A DNA stretch of 64,000 bases, taken from the NCBI GenBank assembly GCA_947476285.1, contig CANJPU010000009.1, forward strand, positions 3,630-67,629, written 5' to 3'. Every line of letters begins with the position of its first letter. Within the stretch, counting starts at the first letter, position 1. Positions 4,273 through 62,564 of the stretch are shown in pieces. The notes below the pieces were generated by a model. It saw only the letters and a list, made by a program, of their open reading frames with translations, did no database searches and was not told the DNA's origin. Origin of the DNA: Comamonadaceae bacterium (GTDB taxonomy: Bacteria > Pseudomonadota > Gammaproteobacteria > Burkholderiales > Burkholderiaceae_C). Made by a program: the position numbers and the translations under genes.

Positions 4273-7140
4273 TCAAGCCGCGCTCACCTGCACCGCGCAG
4301 TATTTGAACTCGGGAATCTTGCCGAATGGATCGAGTGCGGAGTTGGTCAGCAGATTGGCTGCCGCCTCCGCATACGCGAAGGGGATGAACACCGTGCCTT
4401 GCGGTGTGCCGTCGTCGCGGCGGACAAAGAGCTCAACTTCACCACGACGCGAGCGCACGCGCAGGCGCTGGCCAGCCACCAGGCCCAGTGCCTGGATGTC
4501 GTGACCACACATGGACGCACTGGCCACCGGCTCGATCGCATCGAGCACGGCGCTGCGGCGCGTCATGCTGCCGGTGTGCCAATGTTCGAGCTGGCGGCCG
4601 GTGATGAGCACGAAGGGAAATTGCGCGTCGGGCTTTTCGTTTGCAGGCAGCAGTTGTGTTGGCACCAGATGAAGGCGCCCGTCCGATGTGGGGAAATGGT
4701 CAATGAACACGATGGGCTGGCCCGGATCGTCCGCGCTCAGGCACGGGTAGGTGACGCTGCCCTCGCGCTCAAGCCGCTCCCAGCTTATGCCGGCAATCGC
4801 CGCGTGCATCGCCTGGCGCATTTCTTCATAGACCTGCGCCACGCCCTCTTCAGGCCCACCATAGTGCCAGTGCAGACCCAGGCCTTTGGCCATTTGTTGA
4901 ATCAGCCACAAATCGGGCTTGGCGTCGCCCGGCGGATCGATCGCCTTGCGGCCTAGCTGCACCATGCGATCGGTGTTGGTCACCGTACCGGTTTTCTCGG
5001 GCCAGGCGGTCGCCGGTAGCACCACATCAGCCAGCCAGGCGGTCTCGGTCATAAAGATGTCCTGCACCACGAGATGGTCTAGCGAGGCCAGAGCATGGCG
5101 CGCATGGTTGAGGTCAGGGTCACTCATGGCTGGGTTCTCGCCCATGATGTACATGCCGCGCACTTTGTCAGGGTCATCCTCGTCGGCCAAGGCCTTGCGC
5201 ATGATCTCGACCACTGTGTAGCCAGGCCGCGCGTCGAGTTTTGTGCCCCAGAATGTTTCGAACCAGGCGTGGGCCTCGCCGTTGTCCACACGCTGGTAGT
5301 TGGGGAACATCATGGGAATGAGCCCGGCGTCGCTTGCGCCTTGCACATTGTTCTGGCCGCGCAAGGGGTGCAGGCCACTGCCAGGCTTGCCGATCTGACC
5401 AGCCACCGCGCACAACGCGATCAGGCAGCGCGCGTTGTCAGTGCCGTGCACGTGCTGGCTGATGCCCATGCCCCACAGGATCATGGCGGATTTGGCTTTG
5501 GCAAAAGCCCGTGCAACCTCGCGAATGGTGGCTGCCGGGATGCCACAGATATCTTGCATGGCTTCGGGGCTGAAGGCCAGCACGCCTTGGCGCAAAGCCT
5601 CGAAGTTGCTGGTGCGCTGCGCAATGAACCGGGTATCGGCCAAGCCCTCTTCGATGATGGTGTGGATCATCGCGTTGAGCAGGGCCACATCGGTGTCGGC
5701 CTTGAACTGCAGGGTGCGCCAGGCGTGGCGCCCGATGTCGGTGATGCGCGGGTCGGCCAGCACGATCTTCGTGCCCTGGCGGGCGGCATTCTTCATCCAG
5801 GTGGCGGCTACCGGATGGTTGCTGGTGGGGTTGGAGCCGATGACGATGATCAACTCGGCATGTGCCACATCACTGACCTGGTTGCTCACCGATCCCGAGC
5901 CCACGCCTTCGAGCAGCGCGGCCACGCTGGAGGCATGACACAGCCGGGTGCAATGGTCCACGTTGTTGCTGCCAAAGCCAGTGCGCACCAGCTTCTGAAA
6001 CAAGTACGCCTCTTCGTTGGTGCCCTTGGCCGAGCCGAAGCCGGCCAGCGATTTGGGGCCATAGGCATCGCGCAGAAACATGAGCTTGCCGCTGGCCAGT
6101 TGCAGCGCCTCGTCCCAGTCGGCCTCGCGAAATACCTCGGCCCAGCGCGTGGGGTCGCGCATCACGTTCGCATCCTTGTCCACACCAGCCTTGCGGATCA
6201 AGGGCCGCGTCAGGCGATGCGGATGGTGCGCGTAGTCAAAGCCGAAGCGGCCCTTGACGCACAGCCGGCTGTGATTGGCCGGGCCGTCGCGGCCATCGAC
6301 GCCGACGATTTTTTCGTCTCGCACCTTGTAGGTGATCTGGCAGCCGACTCCGCAGAACGGGCAGACCGAGTCAACTTCGCGGCCCACTGCCTGCGATCCG
6401 ATCAGCGTCTTTGGCATGAGCGCGCCAGTGGGACAGGCCTGCACGCATTCGCCGCAGGCCACGCAGGTGCTAGCGGCCATGGGGTCGGCCAGGTCAAACA
6501 CGATCTGGCTGTGCGCTGCGCGATGGGCGTAGCCGATCACGTCGTTGGCCTGCACTTCGCGGCAAGCACGCACGCAGCGGGTGCACTGGATGCAGGCGTC
6601 AAGATTGACGGCCATGGCGGGGTGGGAGAGGTCTGCGCTGGGTTGTTCGCGGCGCAGCGCTTTGAGTTGCGCGCGCGGTGTGACGCCCATGCGCTGCGCC
6701 CAGGCGCTGAGCTCGCCGTGCTGGCCGGAGGGGGTGGATCCCGGATCAAGTCCGGGATGACAGTCAGTTGTCATTGCGGCCTCCGAGCCGCCATCCATGC
6801 GACGCGCGCCATCGTTCCACTTAAAGCCGTCATCGGGCATGTCCGCCAGCAGCATCTCCAGCACCATCTTCTGGCTCTTGCGCGCTCGTTCACTGCTCGC
6901 CTGCACTTGCATGCCAGGCGTAACAGCGCGGCAGCAACTGGGCGCGAGCACGCGTTCGCCGGCTACCTCAACCACGCAGGCGCGGCAGTTGCCGTCGGGG
7001 CGCATGCCCGCCTTGTAGCAAAGCCGGGGGATCTCAACGCCCACACGATCAGCAGCCTGCAAAACAGTCTCGCCCTCAAGCGCCTGCACACGCTGGCCGT
7101 CCAGCGTGAACTCAACAAGGGGTAGATCAGCTGATTTCAT
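4273..7140 (-). CDS. fdhA: Formate dehydrogenase alpha subunit (Mo/W-bisPGD, Cys ligand), NAD-linked type
   Basis: 2Fe-2S (PRLC..GNCRAC..PSCC), two 4Fe-4S motifs, CPFCGVGC, RLCHASS, LRGQNNVQG, PFAYAEAAANLLT; start MKSADL overlaps beta stop. Confidence 0.93.
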   Translation of the reverse strand: MKSADLPLVEFTLDGQRVQALEGETVLQAADRVGVEIPRLCYKAGMRPDGNCRACVVEVAGERVLAPSCCRAVTPGMQVQASSERARKSQKMVLEMLLADMPDDGFKWNDGARRMDGGSEAAMTTDCHPGLDPGSTPSGQHGELSAWAQRMGVTPRAQLKALRREQPSADLSHPAMAVNLDACIQCTRCVRACREVQANDVIGYAHRAAHSQIVFDLADPMAASTCVACGECVQACPTGALMPKTLIGSQAVGREVDSVCPFCGVGCQITYKVRDEKIVGVDGRDGPANHSRLCVKGRFGFDYAHHPHRLTRPLIRKAGVDKDANVMRDPTRWAEVFREADWDEALQLASGKLMFLRDAYGPKSLAGFGSAKGTNEEAYLFQKLVRTGFGSNNVDHCTRLCHASSVAALLEGVGSGSVSNQVSDVAHAELIIVIGSNPTSNHPVAATWMKNAARQGTKIVLADPRITDIGRHAWRTLQFKADTDVALLNAMIHTIIEEGLADTRFIAQRTSNFEALRQGVLAFSPEAMQDICGIPAATIREVARAFAKAKSAMILWGMGISQHVHGTDNARCLIALCAVAGQIGKPGSGLHPLRGQNNVQGASDAGLIPMMFPNYQRVDNGEAHAWFETFWGTKLDARPGYTVVEIMRKALADEDDPDKVRGMYIMGENPAMSDPDLNHARHALASLDHLVVQDIFMTETAWLADVVLPATAWPEKTGTVTNTDRMVQLGRKAIDPPGDAKPDLWLIQQMAKGLGLHWHYGGPEEGVAQVYEEMRQAMHAAIAGISWERLEREGSVTYPCLSADDPGQPIVFIDHFPTSDGRLHLVPTQLLPANEKPDAQFPFVLITGRQLEHWHTGSMTRRSAVLDAIEPVASASMCGHDIQALGLVAGQRLRVRSRRGEVELFVRRDDGTPQGTVFIPFAYAEAAANLLTNSALDPFGKIPEFKYCAVQVSAA
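6735..6803. repeat. Intragenic REP doublet (TGTC-tagged) in fdhA
   Basis: TGGATCCCGGATCAAGTCCGGGATGACA-GTCAGT-TGTCATTGCGGCCTCCGAGCCGCCATCCATGCGAC; both halves resemble the REPs at 59629-59720. Confidence 0.88.
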
Positions 7141-8815
7141 GGGGAAAATACTTCTGCACGCAACGCACCGGGTTAGGCGCGGCCTGGCCCAGTCCACAGA
7201 TGGACGCGTCGGCCATGACCTGGTTCAAGTCTTCCAGCGTTGCGTTGTCCCACACCTGTGCCTGCATCAACTGCGCCGCCTTGGCCGTGCCCACACGACA
7301 TGGCGTGCACTGGCCGCAGCTTTCATCAGCGAAAAATTTCATCATGTTCAGCGCTGCGTCGCGGGCCTTGTCATGCTGGCCGAGGACGATGACCGCAGCC
7401 GAGCCGATAAAGCAACCGTGCGGCTGCAAGGTGTCGAAATCCAGCGGAACATCGGCCAGGCTGGCCGGCAAAATACCGCCGGACGCGCCACCTGGCAGGT
7501 AGGCATAGAGCTCGTGCCCGGGCGCCATGCCGCCGCTGTATTCATCGACCAGCTCGCGCAGCGTGATGCCGGCCGGTGCCAGCTTGACCCCGGGCTCGCG
7601 CACCCGCCCGCTCACACTGAATGAGCGCAAGCCGCTGCGGCCATGCCGGCCATGGCCTGCGAACCATTGCGGGCCTTTCTCCACAATATCGCGCACCCAG
7701 TAAAGGGTTTCGAAATTGTGCTCCAACGTGGGCCGCCCGAACAAGCCTACCTGCGCGATGTAGGGTGGCCTCATGCGCGGCTCACCGCGCTTGCCTTCGA
7801 TGCTTTCGATCATGGCGGATTCTTCGCCGCAAATGTAGGCGCCTGCGCCACGGCGCAACTCGATGCGCGGCAAGGGGCAAGGCGGGTTCGACTGCAGCTT
7901 GGCCAATTCGGCCTGCAGCATGGCGCGGCATTCGTGGTATTCGTCGCGCAGATAGATGTAGATGGCCTCAACGCCCACCACCTGGGCGGCGACCAGCATG
8001 CCTTCCAGGAAGCGGTGCGGTTCGCGCTCAAGATAGTGCCGGTCTTTGAAGGTGCCGGGCTCGCCTTCGTCGATGTTCACGGCCATCAGGCGCGGCGACG
8101 CTTGCTCGCGCACGATGCGCCACTTGCGCCCGGCCGGAAAGCCCGCGCCGCCCAGACCGCGCAGGCCGGCGTCTTCCATGGCCTTGAGAATGCGCTCGGC
8201 CTCATCTTGGCTATTGGCCACTGCTGCGGCCAGTGCGTAGCCGCCGGCGGTGCGATAGGGTTCGTAGCCGATGAAGCCCGCAACAGGTTCTGAAGGTGAA
8301 GGCTTGCCAACTTGTTCAGCAACGCGCTGCGCCGTGGCACAAGCCACCGCGACCTGCCCCACCAGCACTGCCGGCGCCTGCTCACACCGGCCAATGCACG
8401 GCGCGGCAATCACGCGCACTGCGCTGCCCAAGACGGCGGGCAGACGCGCAAGCAGATCGCCCGCGCCGCTCATCTCGCATGAAAGGCCATTGCACACCCG
8501 CACCGTCACGGGCGCGCCTTGTTTTCCATCGCGCAATATCTCGAAGTGGTGATAAAAGCTTGCGACTTCGAACACTTCAGCCATCGAAATGTTCATCTCG
8601 TGCGCCAGCGCCACAAGGTGGTGATCGTGCAAGCCGTGGAAGGCATCATTGAGACGATGCAGCTGCTCGATCAGCAGATCGCGCCGGTGGCCGCCTGCCG
8701 GGGCCGCACCCACTAGGCCGCGAACCTCGGCCACCGCACGCTCATCGGGCTGGCGCCCCTTGAGCTTGCCAGAGCGCTCGCCTGACCTGACAACGCGGAT
8801 GGGCGCCTCGTGCAT
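7127..8815 (-). CDS. Formate dehydrogenase beta subunit (NuoE+NuoF-like: 2Fe-2S, FMN, 4Fe-4S)
   Basis: VCNGLSC..CIGRC; GLRGLGGAGFP, DEGEPGT, GAGAYICGEE, ESCGQCTPCR..ICGLG. Confidence 0.92.
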   Translation of the reverse strand: MHEAPIRVVRSGERSGKLKGRQPDERAVAEVRGLVGAAPAGGHRRDLLIEQLHRLNDAFHGLHDHHLVALAHEMNISMAEVFEVASFYHHFEILRDGKQGAPVTVRVCNGLSCEMSGAGDLLARLPAVLGSAVRVIAAPCIGRCEQAPAVLVGQVAVACATAQRVAEQVGKPSPSEPVAGFIGYEPYRTAGGYALAAAVANSQDEAERILKAMEDAGLRGLGGAGFPAGRKWRIVREQASPRLMAVNIDEGEPGTFKDRHYLEREPHRFLEGMLVAAQVVGVEAIYIYLRDEYHECRAMLQAELAKLQSNPPCPLPRIELRRGAGAYICGEESAMIESIEGKRGEPRMRPPYIAQVGLFGRPTLEHNFETLYWVRDIVEKGPQWFAGHGRHGRSGLRSFSVSGRVREPGVKLAPAGITLRELVDEYSGGMAPGHELYAYLPGGASGGILPASLADVPLDFDTLQPHGCFIGSAAVIVLGQHDKARDAALNMMKFFADESCGQCTPCRVGTAKAAQLMQAQVWDNATLEDLNQVMADASICGLGQAAPNPVRCVQKYFPHEIS

Positions 8816-56183: not shown

Positions 56184-57983
56184 ATGCCAATCACCCTGGA
56201 CGAACTCAATCAAGCAAGCACGGAGCAGGCCGCCGCCATGCTGGACGGTTTGTACGAACACTCCCCATGGGTGGCGCAGGCGGCCTTGCCCCTGCGCCCT
56301 TTCCATTCGCTCACGCACCTCAAGCACAGCATGGCGCGCATCGTGGCCGATGCCGGCAAGCAAGCCCAGCTCACCCTGATACGTGCCCACCCCGAGCTGG
56401 CCGGCAAGGCCATGGTCAGCAAAACGCTCACAGCCGAATCGACCCATGAGCAAGGCAAGGCTGGCCTGACCGATTGCACGCCGCAGGAGTTCACCAGGAT
56501 ACAAAAACTCAACACCGACTACAAAGCCAAGTTCGGTTTTCCTTTCATTCTGGCGGTGCTCGGCGCGCGCGGCGCAGGCCTGTCTAAGCAAGAGATCATC
56601 GACACCTTCGCGCGGCGACTGGAGAACTCACCCGACGAAGAATTGGCCCAGTCGCTGCGCAACATCCACCGCATCGTGGAGATGCGCCTGAATGTCAAAT
56701 TCGGCGTGCAACCCAGCCTGGGCGACCTGGTATGGGATTGGCATGAAAGCCTGGCGCAATTCAGCGACCCAGGCTTTGCCGAGCAAGGGCAGCTCACCGT
56801 CACCTACCTCACGCAGGCCCATCGCGCCGCTGCCGCGCAGATTGCAGACAACATGAAACGCTGCGGCTTCGATGAAGTGACGGTCGACGCCGTGGGCAAT
56901 GTGGTGGGCCGCTACCGAGCCACGCAGCCTGGTGCCAAGACCCTGATGACAGGCTCGCACTACGACACGGTGCGCAACGCCGGCAAGTACGACGGCAGAC
57001 TTGGCATCTTCACACCCATGGCTTGCGTTCGCGAACTCTCGCGCCAGGGCCGGCGCCTGCCCTTCGCCCTGGAAGTAGTCGGCTTCGCTGAAGAAGAAGG
57101 CCAACGCTACAAGGCATCCTTCCTCGGCTCGGGCGCACTGATTGGTGGGTTCAAGCCTGAGTGGCTTGATCTGCGTGACGATGAAGGCATCAGCATGCGC
57201 GAGGCCATGCAGGCCGCCGGGCATGCGGGCACGATGGAGGCGATCGCCGCCCTGCGCCGCAAGCAGCAAGACTATCTGGGCTTTGTCGAGGTGCATATCG
57301 AGCAAGGCCCAGTGCTGGCGCAAGCCGATCTGCCACTAGGCATCGTCACCTCCATCAACGGCAGCCTGCGCTATCAATGCGAAGTGCTGGGCACCGCCAG
57401 CCATGCCGGCACCACACCCATGAACCAGCGGCGCGATGCCGTGCTGGCTGTGGCCGAGCTGGCGCTCTACATGGAACAGCGCGCCACCCGCGATGCCGAT
57501 TCAGTTGCCACCATGGGCATGCTGCAAGTGCCGGGCGGCTCGGTCAATGTGGTGCCAGGGCGCTGCCAGTTCAGCCTGGACATGCGCGCACCCACCGATG
57601 CGCAGCGCGACGCACTGGCCGCTGACGTGCTGGCTCAACTGCACAGCCTGTGCGAAGCACGCGGCCTGCGTTGCAGCGCACTGGAAGTGCTGCGCGCGGC
57701 GGCGGCTCCCAGCGATGCACAGTGGCAGCAGCGCTGGGAAAAGGCCGTGCAGGCACTGGGCGTGCCGGTGTTTCGCCTGCCCAGCGGCGCCGGCCACGAC
57801 GCCATGAAGCTGCATGAGCTCATGCCCCAGGCCATGCTGTTTGTGCGCGGCCAGAACAACGGCATCAGCCACAACCCCCTGGAGAGCACCACCAGCGACG
57901 ACATGGAACTCGCCGTGCAGTCCTTCATGGCGCTGCTGGACCAGCTCTCGCAGGAGTCGGCAAGCGTGGGTGCACCCACATGA
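56184..57983 (+). CDS. uraD: OHCU decarboxylase (UraD) fused to allantoate amidohydrolase
   Basis: N-term EHSPW, HPELAG, KFGFPFI; C-term GSHYDTV, DG, EEEG, HIEQG, GAGHDA. Confidence 0.92.
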   Translation: MPITLDELNQASTEQAAAMLDGLYEHSPWVAQAALPLRPFHSLTHLKHSMARIVADAGKQAQLTLIRAHPELAGKAMVSKTLTAESTHEQGKAGLTDCTPQEFTRIQKLNTDYKAKFGFPFILAVLGARGAGLSKQEIIDTFARRLENSPDEELAQSLRNIHRIVEMRLNVKFGVQPSLGDLVWDWHESLAQFSDPGFAEQGQLTVTYLTQAHRAAAAQIADNMKRCGFDEVTVDAVGNVVGRYRATQPGAKTLMTGSHYDTVRNAGKYDGRLGIFTPMACVRELSRQGRRLPFALEVVGFAEEEGQRYKASFLGSGALIGGFKPEWLDLRDDEGISMREAMQAAGHAGTMEAIAALRRKQQDYLGFVEVHIEQGPVLAQADLPLGIVTSINGSLRYQCEVLGTASHAGTTPMNQRRDAVLAVAELALYMEQRATRDADSVATMGMLQVPGGSVNVVPGRCQFSLDMRAPTDAQRDALAADVLAQLHSLCEARGLRCSALEVLRAAAAPSDAQWQQRWEKAVQALGVPVFRLPSGAGHDAMKLHELMPQAMLFVRGQNNGISHNPLESTTSDDMELAVQSFMALLDQLSQESASVGAPT

Positions 57984-59209
57984 CAGAACACGACAAACTC
58001 GACGCCTGGGTCGATGCCCACTTCGATGAAGAAGTGCGCTTTCTTCAAGAGCTGGTGCGCGTGCCCACCGACACGCCGCCAGGCAACAACGCACCCCACG
58101 CGCAGCGCACCACGCAGTTGTTGCAGGCCTTCGGCTTTGAGGCCGAGCAATACCCTGTGCCGCAAGACGAAGTGCGCGCCTATGGCCTGCAGTCCCTCAC
58201 CAACCTCATCGTGCGTCGGCCTTACGGCCCGGGCGGGCGCACCATCGCGCTCAATGCCCACGGCGATGTCGTGCCACCGGGCGAGGGCTGGGCCCATGAT
58301 CCTTATGGCGCTCAGATTGAAGACGGCAAAATGTATGGCCGCGCCACGGCAGTGAGCAAGGGCGATTTCGCCAGCTTCACCTTCGCGGTGCGTGCGCTGG
58401 AATCATTGCAGGCGCAACTACATGGCAGCGTGGAATTGCACTTCACCTACGACGAAGAATTTGGCGGCGAGATGGGGCCGGGCTGGCTGCTGCGCAACAA
58501 GCTCACTCGGCCCGACCTGATGATTGCCGCGGGTTTCAGTTACGAAGTGGTCACCGCGCACAACGGCTGCCTGCAAATGGAAGTCACCGTGCACGGCAAG
58601 ATGGCCCATGCGGCCATACCGCACACCGGTGTGGATGCACTGCAGGGTGCGGTGCACATCCTTAATGCCTTGTATGCGCAAAACCAGCTCTACCGTGCGG
58701 TCAGCTCCAAGGTGCCGGGCATCACCCACCCCTACCTGAACGTGGGACGCATCGAAGGCGGCACCAACACCAATGTGGTCCCAGGCAAGGTGGCGTTCAA
58801 ATTCGATCGGCGCATGATCCCCGAGGAGGACCCCGTCGCTGTCGAGGCCAGCATACGGCAGGTGATTCAAGACAGCACCGGCGCCTGCCCTGGCATCACA
58901 GTGGACATCAAACGCCTGCTGCTGGCCCACTCGATGCAGCCCCTGCCCGGCAATCAGCCACTGGTCGATGCGATCCAAAAGCACGGCGCCGCGATTTTCG
59001 GCCAGCCCATTCCTGCGATGGGCACACCGCTCTACACCGACGTGCGCCTGTACGCCCAGGCAGGCATCCCCGGCGTGATCTACGGCGCAGGCCCGCGCAC
59101 GGTGCTGGAATCGCATGCCAAGCAGGCCGATGAGCGCCTGGATCTGCAAGACCTCAAAGGCGCCACCAAGGTCATCGCCCGCACGCTGCTCGATCTGCTG
59201 CGCTCTTGA
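57980..59209 (+). CDS. M20/ArgE-DapE-fold protein with non-canonical metal site
   Basis: NAHGDVVP, YGRATAVSKGD, YDEEFGG, GGTNTNVVP, DRR..PEE; ATGA overlap with upstream gene. Confidence 0.85.
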   Translation: MTEHDKLDAWVDAHFDEEVRFLQELVRVPTDTPPGNNAPHAQRTTQLLQAFGFEAEQYPVPQDEVRAYGLQSLTNLIVRRPYGPGGRTIALNAHGDVVPPGEGWAHDPYGAQIEDGKMYGRATAVSKGDFASFTFAVRALESLQAQLHGSVELHFTYDEEFGGEMGPGWLLRNKLTRPDLMIAAGFSYEVVTAHNGCLQMEVTVHGKMAHAAIPHTGVDALQGAVHILNALYAQNQLYRAVSSKVPGITHPYLNVGRIEGGTNTNVVPGKVAFKFDRRMIPEEDPVAVEASIRQVIQDSTGACPGITVDIKRLLLAHSMQPLPGNQPLVDAIQKHGAAIFGQPIPAMGTPLYTDVRLYAQAGIPGVIYGAGPRTVLESHAKQADERLDLQDLKGATKVIARTLLDLLRS

Positions 59210-59320
59210 GCGCGCACCGGGTTTGATCCTGTCAGCCCAAATTGGAAATGCCCCTCGCACCAGCCATCCGGTCTGCACCGGCATTGGCAATGCTGCGGTT
59301 GATTGCCTGCTTGGTTTGCG

Positions 59321-59552
59321 CGTCGCGTCAGGCGATGCCCGGCAGGCGCTCACTGTGGCGGTCTGCGCTTCGCTTCGACTTCGCTGGGATTTGCGGCCTG
59401 AGGTCGGCGGCGCATAACTCACTTCGCGCCCTTCGGCCGCTACGTTCAAACAGATGCGCCGAGCATGAATTGAAGCGCTTCGCGCCCAACCTCAGGCCGC
59501 AAATCCCAGCCGCCCCAGAATGAGCGCCTGCCGGGCATCGCCTGCCGCGACG
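59321..59552 (+). repeat. Nested-hairpin element A (MITE/REPIN-like or structured RNA)
   Basis: 32-bp terminal IR with one mismatch, 22-bp perfect inner IR (59383-59404 / 59489-59510), central GGCGCAT/ATGCGCC stem. Confidence 0.85.
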
Positions 59553-59628
59553 GGTAAGGGGTGGGCGTGCGTTGCGGTGAAGACATGTCGAGCGCACAGA
59601 TTCCACAATACGCAGCCCAGACGCCTTC

Positions 59629-59718
59629 TGTCATTGCGGGCTTGACCCGCAATCCATGCGACCCCGGCCAACACGTTTGTTCAAATGAGCTGGATCCCGG
59701 CTCGAGTCCGGGATGACA
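59629..59718. repeat. Intergenic REP doublet (TGTC-tagged)
   Basis: TGTCATTGCGGGCTTGACCCGCAATCCAT ... TGGATCCCGGCTCGAGTCCGGGATGACA. Confidence 0.88.
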
Positions 59719-59773
59719 GTGGTGGGTGTAGTGAGCACTCCGCCTGAAACCTTCGCGCGCCTACCAAGTTGTC

Positions 59774-60013
59774 TGTCGCGGCAGGCGCAAGGCGGCCAGG
59801 GCTCATTCTGGGGCGGCTGTGATTTGTGCTCTGGGGTCGGATCGCGCGTAGCGCGACACGTTGTCATGCTCGGTGCCCTTGTTTGAGCGGAGCGGCCGTA
59901 GGGCGCGCAGCGAGTTGGGCACCGCCGACCCCAGAGCGCAAATCACAGCGGAGTCGAAGCGCAGCGTAGACCGCCACAGCATGAGCCCTGGCCGCCTTGC
60001 GCCTGACGCGACA
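59774..60013 (-). repeat. Nested-hairpin element B, inverted diverged homolog of A
   Basis: 33-bp terminal IR with one mismatch, ~25-bp inner IR, central GGTGCCC/GGGCACC stem; spacers shared with A. Confidence 0.85.
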
Positions 60014-60269
60014 CGCGACACATACCGCATGAAGCGAAGCGCGACACATGAAAGCAGCGTACGAGGCCGGCGCCTAATTGCAGCCCAGTCAAGATAGCCT
60101 GCAACGGCTGCCCAGGGAACATGTCAAATTCAGGCCGCCACCCCGGGTTTGATCCACCCCAGGGTGGACAATATGACGCAGGACAAAGCGTCCGCTTTTT
60201 TTCTAGCCACCCATCGATCCACGCATGATCCAGCGTGCGAAGATTCGCTACCGTTCTCAGGAGACCGCA

Positions 60270-62564
<2,295 letters not shown>

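Follow-up and report, generated by a model that had tools for sequence, protein, structure and literature searches.

A 64,000-nucleotide stretch of a Comamonadaceae genome (contig CANJPU010000009.1 of assembly GCA_947476285.1, here called the window) carries a pair of repetitive extragenic palindromic (REP) units inside fdhA, the gene for the alpha subunit of a formate dehydrogenase. The pair lies in the linker between two domains of the enzyme, and its reading frame is that of the gene. The explanation preferred here, with a probability of roughly 0.78, is that the pair is a dimer of TGTC/CGTC-tagged REPs, joined tag to tag, which was inserted into the FdhA linker long ago within the Comamonadaceae and has been tolerated as a passenger since. 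Judged from the sequence, the dimer is very probably translated as such a passenger.

In this model, the dimer and its short flanks would add about 27 residues (roughly A112-S138) to the linker. The dimer would have entered once or a few times in an ancestor within the Comamonadaceae and then travelled with the gene. Depending on the lineage, it may afterwards have stayed intact, lost one unit, been duplicated, decayed, or been deleted, and in some cases other REP families may have joined it. The inserted peptide is probably tolerated as a passenger, in a surface loop that is permissive and probably disordered, and without a catalytic or metal-binding role. The preserved entity would instead be the nucleic-acid palindrome with its tag, loop, and tail, and stem complementarity would dictate which amino acids change. 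The units might be preserved by template-switch repair inside the palindrome, by conversion from copies elsewhere in the genome, or by selection acting on the hairpin.

Repeat units and their family

The first-pass annotation of the window had described a REP doublet read in frame inside fdhA, matching intergenic REPs at 59629-59720 with 2 differences in 30 nucleotides. Both statements are borne out. The minus-strand open reading frame (ORF) crosses both units without a stop and is translated there as RRMDGGSEAAMTTDCHPGLDPGST; the pair itself encodes residues 115-135 (M115-S135). The 69 bp from 6735 to 6803 consist of two units whose tag ends face each other, reading TGGATCCCGGATCAAGTCCGGGATGACA, GTCAGT, then TGTCATTGCGGCCTCCGAGCCGCCATCCATGCGAC. 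The first unit, called beta, lies in the 30-mer TGGATCCCGGATCAAGTCCGGGATGACAGT (6735-6764), which agrees with 59691-59720 at 28 of 30 positions. A degenerate version of this 30-mer has exactly two matches in the window, at these two places, and the expectation from 100 shuffles is 0.00. The second unit, called alpha (TGTCATTGCGGCCTCCGAGCCGCCATCCATGCGAC, 6769-6803), matches 59629-59662; the ends TGTCATTGCGG and ATCCATGCGAC are identical, while stem and loop differ.

All four units of the window share one plan: a TGTCAT tag, a 6-nt stem arm, a loop of 5-6 nt, the complementary arm, and ATCCA. The two loci differ in how the units are ordered. The fdhA pair has its TGTCAT tags on the inside, separated by a 6-nt spacer, whereas the intergenic pair (59629-59720: TGTCATTGCGGGCTTGACCCGCAATCCATGCGAC, 28 nt, then TGGATCCCGGCTCGAGTCCGGGATGACAGT) has its ATCCA tails on the inside, 34 nt apart. 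The coding strand of fdhA holds the reverse complement of the alpha unit, read as (R)M115-D-G-G-S-E-A-A-M-T124. Its outermost stem pair is broken in the window, so that the Cys of orthologs (MDCGS) becomes Gly. The TGCGAC that follows the fdhA alpha unit is common to the intergenic alpha copy. For the beta unit of the window fdhA, an identical copy of the 28-mer is found in fdhA of L081 and L085.

A trivial explanation for such a structure would be a repeat-induced chimera, in which fragments of fdhA were joined via a REP during assembly. Some unitigs do break within the dimer, which is the usual behaviour at a repeat (those of X3 and X4 stop at 6764/6765). Two Logan contigs, assembled independently in two freshwater and lake metagenome studies, nevertheless span the dimer with both flanks, one over 6566-6814 (run X1) and the other over 6442-6876 (X2), and show 0 differences. 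The same dimer also occurs in fdhA of independent assemblies from other taxa. An assembly artefact is thus extremely improbable, and the misassembly that would have undone the first-pass interpretation is excluded by the contigs. Their origin points to a lake-dwelling Comamonadaceae population.

By its features, the repeat belongs to the CGTC/TGTC-tagged REP superfamily. CGTC-tagged REPs were described by Di Nocera, De Gregorio, and Rocco in 2013 (BMC Genomics 14:522; PMC3733652) as families CGTC-1 and CGTC-2. Their tag is often TGTC, their stems of 8-9 bp open with complementary A/T residues, their loops have 4-5 nt, their tail is CCA, and they form inverted dimers (PMC3733652). In the window, TGTC heads both fdhA units and both intergenic units; orthologous units start with CGTC or TGTC, and with TGCC in L084. 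In the beta unit, CTTGA is the loop of an 8-bp stem (A-T, T-A, and 6 pairs); the loop of the fdhA alpha unit measures 6 nt, and one stem pair of this unit is broken in the window. ATCCA ends 4 of the 4 window units and is nearly invariant in orthologs. The likeness extends to inverted dimers, to occurrence in several phyla, and to in-frame copies. In-frame intragenic CGTC and GTAG REPs encoding 20-30 residues were already listed in 2013, including a CGTC copy in E. litoralis dnaE2 that is read as RHPGLDPGS (PMC3733652). That survey differs in that Comamonadaceae and FdhA are not listed, its sole formate-dehydrogenase-related entry being a GTAG repeat in Geobacter fdhD (PMC3733652). Compared with its cases, the present one has a single dimer in a single linker across genera, units that are measurably conserved, and an alpha loop of 6 nt.

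The first-pass annotation had named the right precedents, namely the CGTC/TGTC-tagged REPs and the Rickettsia palindromic elements (RPE). The RPE, reportedly described by Ogata et al. in 2000, are likewise palindromic repeats in frame within genes for functional proteins, at surface-compatible positions. RPE-1 elements are about 100-150 bp long and restricted to Rickettsia, whereas the window units are REPs of 28-30 bp in free-living Betaproteobacteria. RPE-4 and RPE-6 were equated with CGTC families by Di Nocera et al. (PMC3733652).

The units also resemble REPINs and BIMEs in forming inverted doublets that fold as long hairpins, in alternating orientation within arrays, and in combining two unit types per heterodimer. 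REPINs are GTAG REP doublets mobilised by RAYT transposases, and BIMEs are mosaic elements of E. coli. The TGTC tag speaks against a GTAG REP or REPIN-RAYT system, although no search for a RAYT gene was made in the window. The tag of the window family is TGTC/CGTC, not GTAG, and a RAYT association is not known for the superfamily (PMC3733652). A MITE, a miniature transposable element with inverted repeats, was rejected as well: no direct repeat flanks the dimer (it is bordered by GCGCGTCGC before ATGGAT and by CCCCCTCC after ATCCA), and the units are palindromic in themselves rather than bounded by terminal inverted repeats. The cloverleaf fold of the dimer could suggest a tRNA, but ARAGORN finds 0 genes in 6600-6950 and Rfam has no match; at both REP loci, Rfam gives sub-threshold chance matches only.

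A scan with the beta pattern GTCATNCCGGRCTTGAYCCGGNATCCA, using one genome per species, returned at least 120 stretches. The pattern is pan-bacterial, occurring in Alpha-, Beta-, Gamma-, and Deltaproteobacteria, Campylobacterota, Nitrospirota, Chloroflexota, groups of the candidate phyla radiation (CPR), and others. Among the matches listed, genomes labelled CPR/Patescibacteria, Bacteroidota, Chloroflexota, and Nitrospirota have the same tag, loop, and tail (L088-L207, L213-L331). Some labels of metagenome-assembled genomes (MAGs) may reflect mis-binned contigs: L233 is labelled Kapabacteria, yet it has a Comamonadaceae-like fdhA with the dimer. The matches listed also show that in related genomes the family is abundant and inverted dimers are common. 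The usual form in Ramlibacter and Polaromonas genomes is a tail-to-tail beta+alpha heterodimer, TGCGGGTCAAGCCCGCA, like the intergenic copy of the window; such heterodimers are seen in L088, L128, L137, L118, L110, and L180.

In-frame copies in other proteins were accepted where Pfam domains lie on both sides of the repeat. One is found in the HrpB helicase of a Campylobacteraceae MAG (L146), where WIPGQARNDE lies between Helicase_C and the HrpB connector. The other is a dimer in a radical-SAM protein of a Nitrospirota MAG (L147), read as VIPGLTRNPAPFKNPLDSRFRGNDE. Apart from these two Pfam-checked cases, many long ORFs across REP matches in GC-rich loci appear spurious. When other REP-decorated proteins were sought in a collection of 5.8 billion proteins, a doubled 54-residue query gave 17 candidates, none of them useful, and an 86-residue linker query gave short fragments only. 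A scan of metagenome contigs for the junction of beta and fdhA returned one locus, without fdhA anchors.

The linker and its inserts in orthologs

FdhA consists of a [2Fe-2S] domain, the linker, two ferredoxin-type [4Fe-4S] sites, a Molybdop_Fe4S4 domain, a molybdopterin domain, and a cap that binds molybdopterin guanine dinucleotide, in this order. The Pfam matches are PF13510 (Fer2_4), PF22117/PF12838 (ferredoxin-type di-cluster), PF04879 (Molybdop_Fe4S4), PF00384 (Molybdopterin), and PF01568 (Molydop_binding). This domain set, the lack of a His-Cys3 (N5/A4-type) motif, and a fused NuoE/NuoF-like subunit gene adjoining fdhA mark it as an FDH1-type alpha subunit. Its best solved relatives are 7vw6 and 7e5z, the alpha subunit of the tungsten enzyme MeFDH1 from Methylorubrum extorquens (E=0). 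Read from its sequence, the window enzyme resembles MeFDH1 in domain order, in cofactor motifs, in lacking a His-ligated [4Fe-4S] cluster, and in its fused NuoE/F-like beta partner. The difference lies in the linker, which has about 26 residues in MeFDH1 (chain 168-193) and 59 in the window FdhA. With HMMER, FdhA residues 9-104/105 and 163/164-953 align to MeFDH1; the linker between them cannot be aligned, and the REP dimer falls within it.

In FdsA of Rhodobacter capsulatus, this region binds an off-pathway [4Fe-4S] cluster, A4, at the dimer interface, with the ligands His117, Cys121, Cys124, and Cys130 (HxxxCxxCxxxxxC; PMC7171172). FdhA aligns to FdsA only up to FdsA chain residue 120, and no HxxxCxxCxxxxxC motif is present in the 955-residue FdhA sequence. 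By alignment, the REPs lie in the linker that stands in FdhA where FdsA has its His/Cys3 [4Fe-4S] site, the equivalent of N5. The first-pass annotation had thus placed the insertion correctly, at the position where FdsA and NuoG carry this motif. It had also proposed that the repeat colonised a loop freed by loss of the cluster. The placement holds, but MeFDH1 also lacks the His-ligated cluster (PMC10869683), and the loss is a trait of the whole FDH1-type subfamily rather than of the window gene.

The linker is the main site of insertions and deletions in the protein, with 0-58 residues in A1 and up to 129 in P0053. In run X1, two low-depth contigs carry 34-35 unrelated nucleotides instead of the linker segment of about 106 nt at 6725-6832. 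They come from the same lake metagenome and represent co-occurring relatives with a short, repeat-free fdhA linker. Short REP-like in-frame inserts are also seen elsewhere in FdhA orthologs, near the positions of residues 331 (P0011, P0013, P0032), 756 (P0013, P0083), 766 (P0040), and 277 (P0010) of the window FdhA. The inserts in these other surface loops read PHPNPPPEGEGA, PHASLPPEGAGPALGRPGGAG, and AASTSSGRS. Permissive sites thus exist outside the linker too, although the linker is the main one.

The linkers of the 120 best homologs of FdhA (76-85% identical) were compared. Between KW(N/T)D and (G)QHGELS they have anything from a few residues to over 120. In the closest insert-free orthologs, P0012, P0020, and P0025 (82-83% identical), the linker is 27 residues shorter and reads KWT[DE]GGQHGELS, close to the gap of about 20-25 residues that had been expected in close orthologs. 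Recognisable REP-derived peptides are present in the linker of 42 of the 116 top homologs. The alpha+beta dimer is found in 7 of the 116 and a beta singlet in 16, some of these decayed (GHPGSDPGC, RHPGIDSGS). A different type, PLTPALSPEGRGS or PLPLGEGRGEG, occurs in 8, and VRPELVEG or LRQAQGDRN in 11. The DNA of L035 and L008 shows the GEGRGEG type to consist of CCCTCTCCC...GGGAGAGGG palindromes arrayed with a period of 39 nt. Judged by signatures in DNA or peptide, the FdhA linker is thus home to at least three types of repeat, two of them verified as palindromic DNA.

At the DNA level, alpha followed by beta in the same orientation and frame is found in L081 (Polaromonas), L082/L083, L084, L085, L209, L210, L233, and L303; L299 repeats the L085 sequence. 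L081, L084, L085, L233, and L303 keep the spacing of the window: 24 nt after AAGTGG, 6 nt between the units, and 8 nt ahead of GGNCARCAY. L082/L083 have this geometry plus one extra codon ahead of the alpha unit; in L209, the spacer of the pair measures 27 nt and the 3' flank is longer. L210 (2393-2554, ortholog P0011) has the order alpha, beta, beta. Here a tandem 39-nt duplication of beta with surrounding spacer and tail nucleotides adds 13 residues (TEPRHAGLDPAST twice), which shows local slippage to be one route of linker growth. L086, L211, L212, and L087 have singlets in the fdhA linker, and only a decayed alpha remnant is left in L019.

The carriers of the dimer, Polaromonas and other Comamonadaceae, have FdhA proteins that are only 76-81% identical. 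Since they share the same pair with the same frame, orientation, and flank distances, the colonisation suggested by the first-pass annotation is probably not recent. The orthologs with the segment do not come from REP-free genomes, as Ramlibacter, Polaromonas, and Rhodoferax genomes carry the family. The 6-nt-loop alpha allele was considered as a shared character specific to fdhA and was dropped when a genome scan showed it to be a common genomic allele. Common descent is therefore argued from the constant geometry, its main support, and not from the allele. The arrangement of alpha, 6-nt spacer, and beta occurs only in fdhA among the matches listed, which include at least 126 genomic matches to the alpha allele.

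One consequence of an orthologous insertion is that its parts can be compared with each other. For five dimers in the same register, mean pairwise identity is 0.90 in alpha and 0.91 in beta. It is 0.40 in the spacer, 0.46 in the 3' flank, 0.65 in the 5' flank, and 0.83-0.85 in the flanking conserved codons; third codon positions of the whole gene are 0.52-0.66 identical. The spacer is thus free in sequence, whereas its length is a constant 6 nt in most orthologs. Among the beta units of 12 orthologous copies, 72 of 72 stem cells are paired. Two stem pairs change on both sides (C-G/G-C/U-A and A-U/G-C), a score reached by 0 of 500 shuffles. The changes are coupled and non-synonymous, with P/A/S at position 3 matched to G/A/E at position 8, which indicates that the nucleic-acid palindrome sets the sequence, not the peptide. 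The tag, the loop (CTTGA), and the tail are nearly invariant among the orthologous units, so that repair preserving the pairing is not a sufficient explanation by itself.

Folded as RNA, the beta hairpin has -12.7 kcal/mol, and the alpha hairpin -10.6 in the window compared with -14.0 in L081. The fdhA dimer alone forms a four-way junction (-30.1 kcal/mol, z -3.35). In a 91-nt context its fold is no better than that of shuffles (z -0.94). The intergenic pair folds into a single long hairpin (-39.6 kcal/mol, z -3.6). The fdhA dimer shows no terminator-like or promoter-like signal, and an internal terminator or promoter was rejected for this reason.

Weighing the explanations

The insert might instead work at the level of the protein, as a Cys/His metal or redox site or as a regulatory or docking loop that replaces the N5-type cluster. 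It does occupy the former cluster site, and most orthologous dimers encode C-x13-C-H (MDCGS...CHPG). The first-pass annotation had likewise credited the insert with adding a Cys-His pair to a redox enzyme. This pair is just the translation of the TGTCAT tag, and it does not stand up as a feature of its own: in 4 of 12 orthologous units, CGTCAT puts Arg in place of the Cys, and the window has Gly instead of the alpha Cys. There would be three ligands at most and no known cluster or metal-binding motif. The P/A/S-G/A/E coupling follows base pairing rather than protein chemistry, the same peptides appear in the unrelated HrpB helicase, radical-SAM protein, and dnaE2, and many active-looking orthologs are without the insert. 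A function of the peptide is very unlikely. Alternately, the hairpins may be selected as a cis-acting nucleic-acid element at the domain boundary, with the peptide as a by-product. Such an element might slow the ribosome between the [2Fe-2S] and ferredoxin domains, or serve in protection or processing of the operon mRNA. The identity of the REP units (0.90, above that of the neighbouring conserved codons and far above spacer and flanks), the compensatory changes that maintain 100% pairing, the stable four-way junction of the dimer, and the unrelated palindromic families at the same boundary in other lineages all fit this idea. More than half of the close orthologs are insert-free, however, some with a linker segment of 13 residues; moreover, the alpha stem is weakened in the window, the dimer in its context folds no better than shuffles, and no terminator-like or promoter-like signal is seen. 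Template-switch mutation in quasi-palindromes can keep pairing without selection, and it could do so here. Selection for a cis-acting element is therefore considered unlikely.

The repeat may also be still active, so that the fdhA copies represent recurrent site-specific insertions or were overwritten by conversion from the REP pool of their own genome. A patchy distribution on the gene tree would be expected in this case, and it is observed. The three fdhA stem alleles at the first variable pair (C-G, G-C, T-A) are the dominant alleles of the pan-bacterial pool among the matches listed, and genomes of Polaromonas, Rhodoferax, and Comamonadaceae have the fdhA-type alpha allele TGCGGCTCGnnGGCCGCA at sites other than fdhA as well. 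The extension ATCCATGCGAC is common to the fdhA and intergenic alpha units of the window and missing from the orthologs, and the presence of at least three repeat types in one linker, two verified as palindromic DNA, means that the site was hit more than once. On the other hand, distant orthologs share frame, orientation, spacer length, and flank distances, which independent events are unlikely to reproduce together. Spacer and flanks diverge as old orthologous DNA should, while the decayed remnant (L019) and decayed singlets (P0004, P0006) speak for long residence. The fdhA alpha unit of the window is nearer to the fdhA alpha units of orthologs than to its own intergenic alpha, which has another loop length. 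Finally, CGTC REPs have no dedicated transposase known in the literature (PMC3733652). Recurrent insertion or conversion thus remains an alternative to be taken seriously, though on balance an improbable one.

Several observations weigh against an old insertion carried as a passive passenger. On a neighbour-joining tree of 116 sequences, built from the protein with the linker masked, beta is present in 23 of 116 with at least 16 state changes. A single gain would need at least 25 losses, a very patchy pattern, and the 7 alpha carriers are never sisters. This distribution allows for high turnover, exchange of segments, or repeated gain. Within its 64 kb, the window has just three to four units of the family, grouped into an intragenic and an intergenic dimer. 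The AlphaFold model of FdhA, made from a low-diversity alignment of 72 sequences, is poor overall (mean pLDDT 54.7), so that low confidence at residues 105-139 is no proof of a disordered insert. Lastly, the conservation of tag, loop, and tail beyond mere pairing exceeds what a passive passenger predicts.

This last point leads to a further model, in which sequence-specific pressure beyond toleration keeps the units in fdhA. The pressure could come from a widespread, postulated factor that recognises or homogenises CGTC/TGTC REPs, or from a cis-acting hairpin that modulates translation or mRNA fate where the [2Fe-2S] domain meets the remainder of FdhA. The model is suggested by the conservation of tag, loop, and tail across genera and by the presence of the same motif across phyla. 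At present it is rather doubtful.

Genomic surroundings and significance

The fdhA gene shares an operon with the upstream gene for the diaphorase subunit (Table 1). With its start placed at 7140, the two genes overlap by 14 nt, likewise in the ortholog L085, and a gene for an Mrp/ApbC-type Fe-S carrier precedes the diaphorase gene. Orthologous loci have the same gene order.

Table 1. Positions of the fdh genes and REP units in the window.
Feature	Position	Strand	Description
fdhA	4273..7140	-	955 aa; alpha subunit, predicted NAD-linked FDH1-type Mo/W formate dehydrogenase
REP unit beta in fdhA	6735..6762	-	Coding strand TGTCAT-CCCGGA-CTTGA-TCCGGG-ATCCA; TGTC tag, 8-bp stem opening with A-T and T-A pairs, 5-nt loop, CCA tail; encodes C127-H-P-G-L-D-P-G-S135
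Spacer between facing tags	6763..6768	.	ACTGAC on coding strand; encodes T125-D126
REP unit alpha in fdhA	6769..6803	+	TGTCAT-TGCGGC-CTCCGA-GCCGCC-ATCCA, then TGCGAC
Fused NuoE/NuoF-like diaphorase subunit (FDH1 beta type)	7127..8815	-	Pfam PF01257, PF01512, PF10589; upstream operon partner
Intergenic alpha unit	59629..59662	+	TGTCATTGCGGGCTTGACCCGCAATCCA plus TGCGAC
Intergenic beta unit	59691..59720	-	(AC)TGTCATCCCGGACTCGAGCCGGGATCCA; tail-to-tail pair with intergenic alpha

The intergenic pair has an unusual setting of its own. It lies exactly at the apex of a near-perfect inverted repeat of about 730 nt (59300-60030), whose arms, 59316-59557 and 59774-60016, are each hairpin-like. An M20 peptidase gene (57980-59209) and a malic-enzyme/PTA gene (60225-62564) border the 1-kb gap that the inverted repeat largely fills. 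The fold of the repeat as single-stranded DNA has -269.8 kcal/mol (z -17.6). Palindromes of this length are usually unstable in bacteria. The structure may have arisen by inverted duplication from the REP hairpin as a seed, or it may consist of two copies of a MITE-like element of about 240 nt.

In-frame insertion of REPs is already documented, and one more case is ordinary. What goes beyond the known cases, as far as the sequences tell, is that the copies are orthologous across genera, that the units are conserved above their surroundings with compensatory changes, and that the linker has been reused by several repeat families. For annotation, CHPGLDPGS, MDCGSxAAMT, PLPxGEGRGEG, and VRPELVEG in alignments should be taken as translated repeats, not as motifs.

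The vestigial linker of the N5-type cluster appears as the dominant permissive site of a very conserved enzyme of 950 residues. It may therefore offer a safe spot for engineered insertions or tags in FDH1-type enzymes that reduce CO2. In an orthologous insertion, the spacer and flanks also serve as a neutral internal control for a base-by-base comparison of old REP copies, and in this comparison it is the palindrome that is preserved, not the peptide. If sequence-specific pressure does act on these units, the FdhA linker would be a natural reporter, an orthologous and datable copy with which the maintenance of REPs could be measured.

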